Shown: piece by piece, positions 13,307 to 18,511 of the stretch
Layout of the letters: the number at the start of each line of letters is the position of its first letter
Numbering within the stretch: the first letter of the stretch is position 1
Origin: Arcobacter sp.
GTDB lineage: Bacteria > Campylobacterota > Campylobacteria > Campylobacterales > Arcobacteraceae
Direction: 5' to 3'
Assembly: GCA_965662175.1 (NCBI GenBank)
Contig: CBFIGT010000038.1
Span: 1-18,935, forward strand
DNA: 18,935 bases
The notes under the pieces: model-generated
Told to the model about the DNA's origin: nothing
Databases searched by the model: none
What the model saw: the letters and a program-made list of their open reading frames with translations, nothing else
Made by a program: the position numbers and the translations under genes

Positions 13307-13663
13307 ATGCAAACAAATATTTTAGGTACAACATTAACAACTTGTTGTAAAAACCCAATAACAGGATTTTATAGGGATGGCTTATGTAGAGCTACACCTG
13401 AAGATAGAGCTGTTCATAGCGTATGTGCTATTGTTACAAATAAGTTTTTAGAGTTTTCAAAACAACAAGGAAATGATTTAACAACTCCAATTCCAGCTTA
13501 TGGATTCCCTGGATTAAAAGAGGGTGATAAATGGTGTTTATGTATTTTAAGATGGATTGAAGCACATAAAGCTGGAGTAGCACCAAGAATTTTAGCAAAA
13601 GCAACTTCTATAGAATCTACTAAATATATAAGCAAAGAGATATTATTGGAGTATGCTATTTAA
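13307..13663 (+). CDS. DUF2237 family Cys-rich protein
   Basis: NILGxxLxxC...PITGFYRDGLC...HSVCA...FLEFSK..GNDLTTP.P.YGFPGLKEGDKWCLC..RW.EA..AG.AP. ATG 13307 has an AAGGA SD. Confidence 0.9.
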   Translation: MQTNILGTTLTTCCKNPITGFYRDGLCRATPEDRAVHSVCAIVTNKFLEFSKQQGNDLTTPIPAYGFPGLKEGDKWCLCILRWIEAHKAGVAPRILAKATSIESTKYISKEILLEYAI

Positions 13664-13668
13664 ATCTT

Positions 13669-13694
13669 ACCCTCATTATAGATTTAATGAGGGT
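13669..13694. terminator. Hairpin between DUF2237 gene and convergent small ORF
   Basis: ACCCTCATTA-tagatt-TAATGAGGGT. The right arm is the last codons of the small ORF. U-tails are weak. Confidence 0.6.
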
Positions 13695-13824
13695 GAATTC
13701 CTGGTTTTATAACTCTAGGATGTTCTAAAACAACAGGGTGAGGAGCACAAAAAAAACAGTGACAACAACCCGAAAAAACTATACTTATAAATAATAGAAA
13801 AACTATTGATAAAACTTTTTTCAT
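13684..13824 (-). CDS. 46-aa putative Cys/His/Pro-rich lipoprotein absent from the ORF track
   Basis: Manual translation MKKVLSIVFLLFISIVFSGCCHCFFCAPHPVVLEHPRVIKPGIHPH*. SD AAGGAG is 6 nt before ATG. Has MKK, a hydrophobic core and an FSG-C lipobox. Confidence 0.8.
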   Translation of the reverse strand: MKKVLSIVFLLFISIVFSGCCHCFFCAPHPVVLEHPRVIKPGIHPH

Positions 13825-13920
13825 TTCTAACTCCTTATTTTTATAAGGAAATTATTACATATATAATTAAATAAATTTTAAATCAAAAGTTAACAAAATT
13901 TAATAGTTTTTATCTGAGTT

Positions 13921-14841
13921 TTAACTATCTTCCATTATCTTTTTGATTTCATGAAGAAGCTCTATTGATGCTTCTATCTCCTCTTTTCTAATAGCTACAC
14001 TTTCAATATTACAACCAATTGGAATACCTTTTTGTGTTCCAAAATCATATAACTCTTTAAAAATATCAACACATAGTTTCATAGAATCATGTAAAATATC
14101 ACCTGAGTGTTTTAAATCCTCTTCTAAGTAGTTAGGAATAGAAATACCAAGCCATTTCATAAAGTCTAGGGTTTTTGCACTTCCACAAGGTGTAAGTGTA
14201 AAGATTATTGGAACCATCTCTTTTTGATTTTCTTTTGCATATTTTGCATAATCAGTTAAAAAAATCTTTGAAGCTTCAAGATTATAAACACATTGAGTCA
14301 CAAAATATTCACATGAGTTATCAATTTTATTAAATACTCTTAAGTGTTCATCATGTTTTGTCATATGACGCTCAGGAATACAAATTCCACCTAAACATAA
14401 GTTATCATTAACTTCTCTTTTTAATCTATATGCTTCTTGGAGTGTTAATGGTTTTTTTTGATTATGGGAAGCTGCTCCTACAAATACAGAGTGAACTTGA
14501 TTCTCTTTTGTTATCTCTAACCATTTTGGAAAAGTTTCACTTGTATAGTTTCCAACAGCTCTATAAACAACTCTTGGAATTTTTAAATCTTGTAAATAAG
14601 CTCTTGAATATTCACATGGGTCTAGAGTTTTAATAAATGGAAAAGGTCTTTTTTCATCTGTTCTATCTGACTCATCTTGAATATCGTACAATACTAAACC
14701 ATCAATTGGTAGTTTTGATATTCTATCAATATGTTTCAAAGCTATTTGTTTTATTTCATCTTCAGTATGCTTTATTTTTGGAGGAGTTATACCATATAGT
14801 AAAATTCCACTTTGTTTATTTCTTATTTTATCTGTTAACAT
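13921..14841 (-). CDS. Methylenetetrahydrofolate reductase-like FAD-linked oxidoreductase (divergent MetF family)
   Basis: LYGITPPK, YDIQDES.R..RPFPF, LGGICIPERH, YFVTQCVYN, FMKWLGISIP resemble the MTHFR TIM barrel. Activity not established from sequence. Confidence 0.7.
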   Translation of the reverse strand: MLTDKIRNKQSGILLYGITPPKIKHTEDEIKQIALKHIDRISKLPIDGLVLYDIQDESDRTDEKRPFPFIKTLDPCEYSRAYLQDLKIPRVVYRAVGNYTSETFPKWLEITKENQVHSVFVGAASHNQKKPLTLQEAYRLKREVNDNLCLGGICIPERHMTKHDEHLRVFNKIDNSCEYFVTQCVYNLEASKIFLTDYAKYAKENQKEMVPIIFTLTPCGSAKTLDFMKWLGISIPNYLEEDLKHSGDILHDSMKLCVDIFKELYDFGTQKGIPIGCNIESVAIRKEEIEASIELLHEIKKIMEDS

Positions 14842-14910: not shown

Positions 14911-15360
14911 TTAATCAAATGTATTATTTCCATTTTTACAAAGTTCAATTGCATCTAGAAGTGTTTCTAAAATATTTTTCTGATCTATTGGTTTTTGTAT
15001 AAATTTTGCAACACCTAAATTAATTAGTTCATATAAGTTTTCAGGATGAGAGTAGGCTGAAAGTACTAATATAACTTGCTCTTCTTGTACACTCATAATC
15101 TCTTTACACAACTCAATACCACCCATTTTAGGCATACTTAAATCTGTAATTACAATATCATAAAAATCATTATTTTCTGTTTCAAACTTATAATACATTT
15201 TTAAAGCTTCTTCACCATCATTTGCTATATCAATATTTTCAAAAAAGTTATATAACATTTTGACAACTTGATTTTGCACTTCCATATTATCTTCTACAAA
15301 TAAAACATTTAAATCTCTACTAAATGGTAAAAGTTCTTTTAGTTTTTCTATAGTTTCCAT
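14911..15360 (-). CDS. Single-domain response regulator (receiver only)
   Basis: VLFVEDN, IVITDLSMPKMGG (phospho-Asp), LSAY, FIQKP. Starts 1 nt after the kinase stop. Confidence 0.9.
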   Translation of the reverse strand: METIEKLKELLPFSRDLNVLFVEDNMEVQNQVVKMLYNFFENIDIANDGEEALKMYYKFETENNDFYDIVITDLSMPKMGGIELCKEIMSVQEEQVILVLSAYSHPENLYELINLGVAKFIQKPIDQKNILETLLDAIELCKNGNNTFD

Positions 15361-15361
15361 A

Positions 15362-18300
15362 TTAATCCTTTGGAATTGATATTTTAAATATTACGCCATT
15401 TTTGCTATTTTCTACGTTTAATAGCCCTTTACAATGCTCTTCTATAATCACCTTACTCATATATAAACCTAATCCTGTTCCATCTTTTGTTAATCTTGTT
15501 GAAAAGTATGGTTCGAAGATTTTATTTAAATTTCTTTCTTCTATTTGTTTCCCATTATTCTCTATTTCAAGAAAAATATTTTTTTCATCTTTATATGTTC
15601 TTATATTAATAGTTGGTTTCTCAATCTTATTTTCAATCAAAACATCTTCTGCATTTTTTAAAATATTTAAAACCACATGATTTATCTCTGTTGAGTATGT
15701 TTTTACTTTTTCATAACTATCAAAATTTAATTTTAAATCAATTAAATTACTAGATAAAGATGGTTTTATTATATTTATTGCTTGTTCAACAACATTTTCA
15801 ATAGTAACTAGTTTTTTAACTTTTTCTTTTTTATAAAAATTTCTAAAGTCATCAATAGTTCCTGATAAATATTGTGCATAATCATTTATCAAGGATAACT
15901 CTTTTTCTAATACTTCTTTATCTATCTCTTTTCCTAAAATCATTTTTAGTGATAGATTATTTATTGTTGCTGAAATTGCTGTTAATGGCTGTCTCCATTG
16001 ATGTGCAATCATATTAATAAGTTCACCCATTTGAGCTAATCTTGATTGTTGTATAAGCTGTTTGGTTTTTTGTTCATTTTTTTGAATCTCTTCAACTATT
16101 TTATCTTCCAAACTATTTTTTAATAAAGCAATCTCATTATTTGCTTTTTTTAACTCATTATTATGTCTATTTAATACAATTTGTCTATAAATAATAACCA
16201 CAAAAACAATAAAAATAAGAAATGTTATTTTCCAAAATAGGTCATAATCAAACTTCTCTTTAATACCATTTGTTGACCATTTTGAAATAATCTCTCTTTT
16301 ATCTTTTTGGGAAAGATTTTTAATAGATTTATTTAAAATATCAAAAAGTATTGGTTCACTGTTACTTACAGCCATATTTATATTGTATGTTAAGTTTGTA
16401 TATCTTGAGATATATAAATCACTCATTGCGTATTCAGCCATATAGTATGAGGCTATAGGAAGTGGAGCTAGGGTAAAATATGCCTTATTATTATTTACAG
16501 ACTCTAATGATTTATGATAATTTTCTGTTTTAATAATATTAATATCAGGGAAAACAGATTTAAACTCAGAGATTAATTGTGAATCATTTTTTAAAGCAAT
16601 AGGTTTATCAATAATATCTTCTAAACTTGGTACAACTGGAATATTTTTTCTTGTAATAATTGCTAGTTTGTATGTTAAATATGGATATGTAGTATTAATT
16701 CCCTCTAATAAAATATCATTATTTTCAATAGTAGGAATAATATCACATCTCTTTTTATTTAAAAATTCAACTGATTGTTTAAAGGAGTTAGTTGGAATAT
16801 ATTTAAATGATATGTCCAAACTATTTTTAAAATTCTCCAAAATATCAATACTTATTCCCATTGGTTTATTGTCTTCCAAAAATGAGATTGGATTAATATC
16901 ATAATTCATACAATATCTTATCTCTTTCTTCTCTTTTAAATAGATTTTCTCTTTATTTGTTAAGAAAGTTTCATTTTTCTTTGTAAAACTTTGTTCTCCA
17001 AACCATTTTCTTTTTAGAGTTAAAAGCTCCTCATCACTTACTGAGTCTTGTGCTTTTTGAAGTATTGATTGTAACTCTTTTTCACCTTTTGGAATACCCA
17101 TTCTAATCAAACTAACAAGTCTATTATCATCAACAAAATTTGTAGCTGTAACTCCTGAAATATTATTTGTGCTAATTATGTAATCTAAAACATTTTTTTT
17201 ACCAATAGTTGCATCAGCTTTTCCAAGAGAGAGTTGTCTTAGTGCTTCTAAAGAGTCTTTTACTAAAATCTGATTTATTTCAGGATAATATTTTTCTATT
17301 AATTGTTGAGCAAAAAAACCTTTTGGCATAATTATTGTTTTATTTTTTAATTTTTCTAAAGAGTCTAAATTTTCAGAACCATTTTTTACATATATTGCAT
17401 TTGCTGCTGTATGAAAAATATCTGTAAAATCTATATACTCTTCCCTTTGTTTGTTTTTTGATATATTATTTATTATATCAATCTCTTTATTTTTTAATAG
17501 TTCTAAAAATTCATCCCAAGAATAACCATAAACATACTCAACATCCATATTTAGTTTTTTTGCTAATAAATTTGTATAATCAATTGAAAAACCTTTTGCA
17601 ACTCCATTTTCATTGAAGTTATATGGTGGCCAATTTTTTTCATTATGGACTTTTAAAACTCTTTTATTACTTATATACTCTTTTTCTTCTTTTGTTAAAT
17701 TTAGTGTTTTATCCATTTCAAGTGGAATTAGTTTTGTATTAATTTCTGTAATCCATTTAGCGTAGAGTTCACTCCACTCTTTTGGACTAATATTTTCAAT
17801 TGATTTATCAATTATAGAGTAGAGAATTTTATTATCTTTTTGAATTCCATATCTTAAGTCAGTTTTTTTAATATTAGCAATATCTAGTTCACCTAAGGCT
17901 TTTAAGTTTGTAAATCCCTCTTTTATTATTATATTTTGCATACTTAAAAGATGGCCAAATAAAACATCAATTTCTCCAAAAGCTAGAGCTTTTAATTTTT
18001 CTGATAATTGATTATAAAATTTGATTTCAAAAATATTTAGGTCATTAATTTCGTTATAGTAAAATATATCTTTTGTAAGTCCAAGTTTTTTCCCTTTTAA
18101 GTCAAAGATATTTGTATAGTTTGTTAAATCCTTTCTAGCAAATATTACTAAAGGAATTTCATAATATGGTTTTGTAAAACTTGTAAACTCTAATCTCTCT
18201 TTTCTAAAAGAGATTGCATCAATTATATCAACTTTTTTCTCTTTGAATTTTTTTAAGTTATTAGGCCAAGTATCGATTTCATACTTAAATTTTATACCAT

Positions 18301-18511
18301 GTTTTTTTCTTAGAAGTTTCAAAATATCATTAGATAATCCACTGAATTTATTTTTTTCATATATATTAAATGGAGGAAAGTCAGGTAAAACAGCAACACT
18401 AAACTCATGTGTTTTTATATATTTTAACTCTTCACTTGTAAAAATTAAATCTTTTGCATTTAGATTTGATGAGATTAAAATAGTAAAAATTATTAAAATT
18501 ATTTTAAACAA
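15362..18511 (-). CDS. Sensor histidine kinase with three tandem periplasmic solute-binding (family 3) domains
   Basis: Signal peptide. Three repeats each starting (L/F)T-x-x-E-x-x-Y(I/L) with P-x-x-F/PPFN and G-x-S-x-D. One TM, MIAHQWRQPL H-box, NILKNAED, FEPYFST, GTGLGLYMSK. TTG start. Confidence 0.92.
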   Translation of the reverse strand: MFKIILIIFTILISSNLNAKDLIFTSEELKYIKTHEFSVAVLPDFPPFNIYEKNKFSGLSNDILKLLRKKHGIKFKYEIDTWPNNLKKFKEKKVDIIDAISFRKERLEFTSFTKPYYEIPLVIFARKDLTNYTNIFDLKGKKLGLTKDIFYYNEINDLNIFEIKFYNQLSEKLKALAFGEIDVLFGHLLSMQNIIIKEGFTNLKALGELDIANIKKTDLRYGIQKDNKILYSIIDKSIENISPKEWSELYAKWITEINTKLIPLEMDKTLNLTKEEKEYISNKRVLKVHNEKNWPPYNFNENGVAKGFSIDYTNLLAKKLNMDVEYVYGYSWDEFLELLKNKEIDIINNISKNKQREEYIDFTDIFHTAANAIYVKNGSENLDSLEKLKNKTIIMPKGFFAQQLIEKYYPEINQILVKDSLEALRQLSLGKADATIGKKNVLDYIISTNNISGVTATNFVDDNRLVSLIRMGIPKGEKELQSILQKAQDSVSDEELLTLKRKWFGEQSFTKKNETFLTNKEKIYLKEKKEIRYCMNYDINPISFLEDNKPMGISIDILENFKNSLDISFKYIPTNSFKQSVEFLNKKRCDIIPTIENNDILLEGINTTYPYLTYKLAIITRKNIPVVPSLEDIIDKPIALKNDSQLISEFKSVFPDINIIKTENYHKSLESVNNNKAYFTLAPLPIASYYMAEYAMSDLYISRYTNLTYNINMAVSNSEPILFDILNKSIKNLSQKDKREIISKWSTNGIKEKFDYDLFWKITFLIFIVFVVIIYRQIVLNRHNNELKKANNEIALLKNSLEDKIVEEIQKNEQKTKQLIQQSRLAQMGELINMIAHQWRQPLTAISATINNLSLKMILGKEIDKEVLEKELSLINDYAQYLSGTIDDFRNFYKKEKVKKLVTIENVVEQAINIIKPSLSSNLIDLKLNFDSYEKVKTYSTEINHVVLNILKNAEDVLIENKIEKPTINIRTYKDEKNIFLEIENNGKQIEERNLNKIFEPYFSTRLTKDGTGLGLYMSKVIIEEHCKGLLNVENSKNGVIFKISIPKD

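Follow-up and report, generated by a model that had tools for sequence, protein, structure and literature searches.

A 46-codon minus-strand gene of Arcobacter sp. encodes a predicted micro-lipoprotein and carries a promoter resembling that of a Spy-like two-component operon

A 46-codon open reading frame (ORF) on the minus strand of an 18,935-nucleotide stretch of Arcobacter sp. DNA (the whole stretch analysed, hereafter the window) is almost certainly a real gene, and its product is with high confidence predicted to be a lipoprotein. From its promoter this mini-gene probably belongs to the regulon of an OmpR-type regulator encoded in an operon headed by a Spy-like gene (hereafter the spy operon). 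The sequence-only reading that drew attention to the ORF had called it missing; it was absent from the gene track seen by that reading, but an NCBI-sourced gene call already exists in the protein collection. The coordinates of the gene, its expression signals and its neighbours are given in Table 1.

Table 1 Features of the mini-gene and its surroundings in the window
Feature	Position	Strand	Basis or remark
46-aa mini-lipoprotein gene	13684..13824	minus	sequence; homolog; pN < pS
Shine-Dalgarno AAGGAG	13831..13836	minus	6-nt spacer to ATG
Signal peptide, residues 1-19, ending in lipobox F-S-G	13768..13824	minus	sequence; helical in AlphaFold model
Predicted mature 27-aa peptide: C-C-H head and Pro-rich arm (P-x-P-V-V, IKPG)	13687..13767	minus	
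Predicted 5'-UTR hairpin over the Shine-Dalgarno, -6.7 kcal/mol	13831..13850	minus	folding
Extended -10 element TGTAATAAT, spy-promoter type	13851..13859	minus	
Four TTAA half-sites, starts 13903/13893/13881/13870, spacing 10/12/11	13867..13903	minus	predicted OmpR-family regulator sites
10-bp inverted repeat (13669-13678 / 13685-13694), no U-tract	13669..13694	.	
DUF2237 gene, convergent neighbour	13307..13663	plus	not linked in relatives
MTHFR-like gene, upstream neighbour	13921..14841	minus	not linked in relatives

The sequence features described by the sequence-only reading were all recovered: the ORF follows an AAGGAG Shine-Dalgarno (SD) sequence at 6-nt spacing, its product begins with MKK and a hydrophobic stretch leading into the lipobox F-S-G|C, and the predicted mature peptide contains 4 Cys, 5 His, 5 Pro and three His-Pro pairs. 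The C/G-richer codons it had remarked upon are also real (GC 36.9% in the mature codons plus stop vs 19.3% in the signal codons and 14.6% upstream), and the stop does lie within a hairpin, the 10-bp inverted repeat covering it together with the final codons. A filter combining lipobox and SD retained four ORFs of 28-90 aa in the genome vs 1, 0 and 0 in three shuffles. No terminator was called in a scan of the region, where the inverted repeat overlapping the stop lacks a U-tract; this stop hairpin was rejected as a repeat element, being present in one copy in the genome and not evident after 16 DUF2237 homologs. A sigma-70 scan did not list a minus-strand promoter for the mini-gene, and an Rfam search of the region returned no match near the gathering score. 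In three DNA runs, each from a different study and one of them possibly the source of the window, the ORF was unchanged wherever contigs covered it, and a contig piece of a further run, X10, whose RNA nature is a guess, ends at 13692. An AlphaFold model (3 sequences) gave a helix for the signal and a low-confidence tail, with residues 29-46 below a pLDDT of 50.

Consistently with a lipoprotein, the precursor combines an MKK n-region, an h-region and F-S-G-C20, which in the homolog reads L-S-G-C. The strict lipobox consensus at position -3 is [LVI]; Phe at this position is frequent among lipoproteins of the family genomes. Lgt, LspA and Lnt are all encoded in the genome, each above its profile cut-off, and among its 42 predicted lipoproteins the mini-protein is the sole carrier of Cys+2 or His+3.

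Searching 184 genomes of the family, we found a single full-length homolog, a 47-aa ORF in a genome of another genus (G068; E 2.7e-8); the mini-gene family is present in 2/184 of these genomes, and a homolog was absent from all seven same-genus genomes searched. A scan of 1.84 billion representatives yielded three matches, namely the protein itself, P0003, which is a one-residue allele of the G068 homolog, and P0002, a 234-aa repeat protein discarded as unrelated; the same scan contained no longer relative. No additional homolog emerged from searches of 41 relatives and of the own genome, word-index protein searches returned only self or P0003, and a profile search of the 184 family genomes and about 400 genomes of the order detected no further full-length member, its other matches being mostly signal peptides. 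None of 598 metagenome contig stretches matched, and the one match among 600 genome contig stretches was confined to the signal region. In line with the sequence-only reading, which recognised no family for it, the mini-protein matches none in Pfam (E<=1) or NCBIfam; its homolog has no Pfam match either, and neither protein matches the PF12778 (PXPV repeat) or entericidin profiles. In the ESM Atlas, its neighbours are clusters of 35-72 aa without a name (0.78-0.84), all below 0.9 and to be taken as leads only, as is the PXPV cluster found for the homolog at 0.79.

The mini-protein and the G068 homolog are about 50% identical (51%), with the same frame and stop and near-equal length. The alignment spans 47 codons, of which 13 are the same in both genes, 10 show only synonymous differences and 24 specify another residue. 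pN is 0.29-0.33 (range by alignment) vs a pS of 0.53, and dN/dS is ~0.4-0.5 on 46 codons only. Between the Spy orthologs of these genomes, pN is 0.48 and pS 0.37, with 31% protein identity vs 51% for the mini-protein. The residues kept are S-G-C-C-H, a Phe, P-x-P-V-V, a Pro and IKPG, and the codon of the conserved His+3 differs synonymously between the two genes. CxxC (its cysteines replaced by F and L), four of the five His and all His-Pro pairs are lost, leaving the homolog with 2 Cys and 1 His in total; the terminal His-Pro-His codons of the mini-gene fall in one arm of the hairpin, a structure absent in the homolog. Of the conservation that the sequence-only reading had proposed to check across the family, that of the frame is borne out, being kept in G068 with pN < pS, and that of the Cys/His pattern is not.

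These comparisons bear on whether the ORF encodes a functional protein and on the stronger functional proposals of the sequence-only reading. That it is a chance ORF, or the decaying remnant of a longer lipoprotein, is very unlikely: its absence from 7/7 same-genus genomes and the modest dN/dS would fit such a case, but the homolog has equal frame, length and stop with 10 codons differing only synonymously, no longer relative exists among the 1.84 billion representatives, and the ORF is unchanged in three DNA runs. A functional core made of the CxxC and the His-Pro tail had been suggested by the 4 Cys and 5 His packed into 27 residues, and with it either a metallothionein-like chelator or a ribosomal lipopeptide precursor. 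Both elements are, however, gone in the only homolog family (G068 and P0003). The metallothionein reading fails because the homolog lacks CxxC, most His and the His-Pro pairs, and no metallothionein profile or other family matched; the ribosomal precursor is unlikely because no modifying or tailoring enzymes flank either gene, so that we regard these strong forms as highly improbable. Of the proposed metal binding, the version based on a CxxC/His-Pro cluster was therefore abandoned, and a weaker idea survives through Cys+2/His+3 and the His-rich sister peptides described below.

Upstream of the gene, the DNA is conserved as well: the mini-gene and homolog upstream DNA align with a local score of 71 (maximum 45 among 601 AT-rich upstream regions) and ~75% identity, above the conservation of synonymous sites. 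When 20 loci with weak DNA matches to this upstream stretch were examined, 11 proved to be promoters of one operon, in which an LTXXQ (Spy/CpxP-like) gene comes first, followed by genes for an OmpR-type regulator and a kinase. The kinase is of the ArsS family by NF038389 (428 bits vs cut-off 250), and both Cpx equivalog tests remained below cut-off (CpxA 58 vs 486 bits, CpxR 119 vs 341 bits); the regulator is present in 145/184 family genomes. The common promoter design comprises four TTAA half-sites ~11 bp apart, the last of which ends 7-8 nt before an extended -10 element. For promoters of the Epsilonproteobacteria/Campylobacterota, a -10 consensus of gnTAnaAT and a generic periodic signal are described (PMC3847290).

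A first matrix, which ranked the mini-gene site first, was discarded for bias, its 11 promoters having been collected by similarity to the query. The matrix was rebuilt from 28 loci selected by regulator similarity; with 5 loci without a usable promoter removed and the own spy promoter held out, 22 promoters remained. Over 5,161,168 genome positions, this matrix gave its highest score to the own spy promoter (42.7 bits) and ranked the mini-gene site second (15.1), the next site scoring 10.5, and with 1-nt shifts allowed the mini-gene was second of 2,294 gene starts (21.6). The mini-gene site is the best match to the spy matrix outside the spy operon in the genome. The homolog's promoter reached only -5.0 to 0.7 bits on the spy models and is among five consensus-pattern sites in G068, a pattern that failed to pick up the spy promoters in G002, G005 and G006. 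The 5' leader of the mini-gene is near-identical to the spy leaders of G005 and G006 (alignment score 67), which share the SD-covering hairpin (L130, L134); a hairpin this strong over the SD occurs in 10/646 genes of the genome, and it may possibly be a thermosensor or a trace of the copying of a spy gene's 5' end. Third in the ranking by the spy model comes a DUF4405 gene (G000:C66:5304-5774; L227:1005-1475).

TTAA-type boxes are not specific to one regulator, TTAA-N7-TTAA being described as the binding site of both CosR (10.64898/2026.08.04.742711) and DsbR (10.1101/2020.08.17.255257). Among longer genes of the genome, a single TTAA-N7-TTAA pair lies upstream of 76/1,186 and a strict four-TTAA chain upstream of 2/1,186. 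Rival models were built from 16 of 29 htrA-operon loci and from 26 of 29 loci of a conserved orphan regulator, to which NCBIfam gave no name and which we take to be CosR-like. The spy, htrA and cosR-like models each recovered their own held-out promoter. On these three models the mini-gene site scored 22.1, 11.3 and -29.9, with 1, 3 and 280 of 815 background regions scoring higher, respectively; these scores make the spy-linked regulator the best candidate, followed by its htrA paralog, and membership of the mini-gene in the spy-linked regulon, as predicted from the DNA, is probable. Further paralogous two-component pairs are located at G000:C59:1617-3059, C48:12720-14575 and C26:9448-11741, the htrA-led one among them having its own conserved TTAAC-repeat promoter.

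Synteny with the DUF2237 gene, the MTHFR-like gene or the G068 neighbours was rejected, the first two not being linked in relatives. The neighbours of the G068 homolog are a Tll0287 two-component pair and what is presumably a nitrate-reductase-like gene, and no metal genes lie beside the mini-gene or this homolog. Contigs of runs X2 and X4 enter the same different sequence past position 13913, just past the first TTAA half-site, while X3 agrees with the window; judged from these contigs, the upstream neighbour of the mini-gene differs among strains. Because the shared DNA stops at 13913, the mini-gene and its promoter appear to move as a unit without the MTHFR-like gene. For the DUF2237 gene, the start is most likely ATG 13307, which has an SD-like sequence and agrees with homolog starts, and not 13271. 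Further along, positions 14911-18511 encode a 1049-aa sensor kinase and a 149-aa receiver, located between the MTHFR-like gene and a gene that we assume to be TonB-like. This pair looks inserted, since in 7/7 same-genus relatives a 263-268-aa TonB-type gene directly precedes the MTHFR-like gene.

Other very short lipoproteins of the family carry similar promoters. A regular expression for the proximal motif matched 5/18 short lipoprotein ORFs in the fetched loci: the query, its homolog, and the G041, G068:C6 and G186 peptides, which are His-rich (36-43 aa, 5-6 His). The motif was present in 2/77 longer lipoprotein-like ORFs, one Spy-like and one from the motif search, and in 4/1,827 genes of the own genome. 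This expression and the later patterns were written after the query had been seen and are not independent for it; G068:C6 was found by motif, whereas G041 and G186 had come up earlier through protein similarity, when the motif was not yet known. The spy model placed G041, G068:C6 and G068:C8 in the top 0.5% and G186 partially (61/815 higher), G108 and G188 being without the motif; the sister peptides have no common arm sequence. A family-wide pattern, likewise written after the query was seen, gave 17 matches in 149 genomes vs 6 with a reversed control. Of the 17, 12 precede spy genes as judged by coordinates, 3 precede these micro-lipoproteins, 1 precedes an OprC-like TonB receptor gene and 1 is spurious. 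The N-terminal segments of Spy-like proteins contain at least 5 Cys/His/Met in 39 residues in 19/20 cases.

Taken with the conserved head, these data lead us to propose, tentatively, that the mini-gene encodes a copper- or thiol-stress buffer, a lipid-anchored 27-residue peptide of the spy regulon acting through its Cys-Cys-His start. Upon envelope stress, the phosphorylated OmpR-type regulator of the spy operon would bind the TTAA repeats, as the rank of the motif suggests, and would then activate the promoter, with its non-consensus -10, together with the Spy-like chaperone operon. To judge from its lipobox and the maturation enzymes encoded in the genome, the peptide would be processed by Lgt and LspA, passed on to Lnt and Lol, and anchored at Cys20. 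Near the bilayer, the free Cys+2 and His+3 might bind Cu or oxidants as a decoy, which is the weakest step of the model; the four extra His of this genome's peptide may assist, and the Pro-rich arm would stay extended. Indirect signs for this last step are the His-rich sisters, the Cys/His/Met-rich N-termini of Spy-like proteins, the OprC-like target, a His-rich mini-lipoprotein of G108 (no motif) in a copper-efflux cluster, and copper being described as blocking lipoprotein acylation in E. coli (PMC6538781). Against the buffer stand the 2 Cys and 1 His of the nearest homolog, whose other conserved residues fit protein binding equally well, and against the regulon step the use of TTAA-N7-TTAA as a CosR/DsbR box, the high rank of the site on the htrA model and the low scores of the homolog's promoter. 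The generic periodicity of such promoters, the 2/184 vs 145/184 distribution of mini-gene and regulator and the lack of metal genes next to either gene also count against the model. In a bolder version, which we consider unlikely, Arcobacteraceae would repeatedly have placed lipid-anchored micropeptides of 17-28 residues under the promoter of their Spy/ArsS-family operon. The C-C-H start would then make up an amino-terminal Cu(II) site of the ATCUN type (X-X-His), limited to the diacyl stage that precedes Lnt, and the peptide would serve as a copper trap or as a reporter of the state of lipoprotein maturation that feeds back on the kinase, a minimal counterpart of NlpE or MgrB.

The main rival to the buffer model retains the same regulon and makes the peptide a feedback modulator or sentinel, whose Pro-rich arm would bind the ArsS-family kinase, the Spy-like protein or HtrA; we hold it to be rather unlikely. 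The conserved residues are mostly Pro or hydrophobic, as might be expected of binding peptides, the site is the genome's best non-operon match, and MgrB and SlyB are among the precedents for modulator peptides. Others come from CpxP and NlpE, described as tuning CpxA (PMC6737893), and from CpxM/CpxP in P. aeruginosa, as reported in PMC12802237. The patchy spread, 2/184 genomes vs 145/184 for the regulator, nevertheless speaks against a core regulator, no arm sequence recurs among the sister peptides, and the mini-gene is unlinked to the spy operon. Alternatively, the product could be a stress-induced lipopeptide without a specific ligand, an unstructured Pro-rich filler of membrane or surface with His as a lineage by-product. 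We find this rather doubtful since Cys+2/His+3, unique among the 42 lipoproteins, is yet kept in the homolog and His-rich sisters recur behind the same motif, even though four of the five His are not conserved, the last ones are coded by the hairpin arm, the modelled tail is disordered and the ESM Atlas neighbours, as leads, are nameless short clusters. It is likewise unlikely that the gene is real and its TTAA repeats serve another regulator (the htrA-linked paralog or the CosR-like orphan), reflect generic periodicity, or belong to an unused copy of a spy 5' end. The htrA model does place the site fourth against 815 regions, CosR does bind a TTAA-n7-TTAA box, and the near-identity to the G005/G006 spy leaders hints at copying, but the spy score is twice the htrA score and the cosR-like model fails; the upstream DNA, more conserved than synonymous sites, and the rarity of the four-TTAA chain also speak against it.

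The arrangement recalls E. coli Cpx, in that an LTXXQ protein (Spy/CpxP, PF07813) heads the operon sharing the mini-gene's promoter, and differs from it in having an ArsS-family kinase instead of CpxA and a TTAA box instead of the CpxR GTAAA repeat. NlpE, too, is a lipoprotein that belongs with a two-component system for envelope stress (PMC6737893, PMC6538781), but it consists of two beta-barrel domains and acts as an upstream sensor, whereas the mini-protein would be a 27-residue unfolded peptide and a predicted output of its regulon. Among the ArsS-family systems, H. pylori ArsRS and C. jejuni CprRS/RacRS, the likeness is one of family profile, the kinase passing the NF038389 cut-off; such systems of Campylobacterota are described as handling acid, envelope and heat stress (PMC9449129). 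In the Arcobacteraceae system, a Spy-like gene comes first and a separate paralog accompanies htrA, and we found no micro-lipoprotein target of ArsS-family systems in the literature. P. aeruginosa DsbRS, described as copper-sensing (10.1101/2020.08.17.255257), and C. jejuni CosR are OmpR-family examples acting on TTAA-N7-TTAA with other genes and targets, and the cosR-like promoter model does not fit the mini-gene site. C. jejuni PflE, a 57-aa lipoprotein with a flagellar role according to 10.1101/2025.04.02.646747, is likewise a very small functional lipoprotein of the Campylobacterota, likened here by its description. PXPV-repeat lipoproteins (PF12778) and entericidins are also tiny or Pro-rich, without a Pfam match here. 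SmtA-type metallothioneins and H. pylori Hpn are short, Cys/His-rich and cytoplasmic, with conserved ligand sets; the mini-protein differs by its export signal, its richness in aromatic residues and the conservation of Cys+2/His+3 only.

Small stress-regulon lipoproteins are already known as a kind, and tiny lipoproteins are known in the phylum; what appears new is the mini-gene family, the motif and the Spy/ArsS link, none of which we found in the literature, although subscription papers (Svensson 2015, CprRS) or supplements may hold a CprR box. A candidate binding motif is now available for the spy-linked system of Arcobacteraceae, whose regulator occurs in 145/184 genomes, and its best predicted target beyond the operon is a family-less lipoprotein with a 27-residue mature part. 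This suggests a class of micro-lipoproteins, rich in His and Pro, that is missed by homology searches and found through promoter motifs; the peptide can be synthesised, so that metal binding and kinase modulation are cheaply testable.

Several further loci came to light. A TonB-dependent receptor in G089 (L328:1250-2701) has a spy-type promoter (9.5 bits), which the similar gene of the own genome lacks; it is nearest to the TIGR01778 copper receptor family, at 133 vs a cut-off of 472 bits for a truncated sequence. In G108, a 40-aa His-rich mini-lipoprotein (L128:3150-3272) without the spy motif is encoded last in a DUF411 and cytochrome c operon that adjoins a CusB/CusF-type efflux cluster, and His/Tyr/Arg-rich mini-lipoproteins of 57-62 aa, also without the motif, occur in G188, G191 and G194 (L072:3940-4128, L129:5488-5676, L196:1408-1581). 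The own genome encodes other lipoprotein ORFs below 60 aa at G000:C130:521-649, C111:1005-1172 and C169:184-357, the first presumably LptM-like and the last presumably entericidin-like. Two small RNA candidates, of which the L313 and L322 copies gave no match in Rfam, were also noted. One, of ~75 nt (G000:C1 ~15375-15450 minus, L330; also L313 in G006 and L315 in G005), combines a TTAA-type promoter, an anti-SD-like pyrimidine stretch and a GC-rich terminator, and is kept in three same-genus genomes with differing upstream genes. The other is longer (L322 in G041 and L323 in G068, ~1545-1680), with a similar promoter and terminator, and lies upstream of a gene that we take to be helicase-like.
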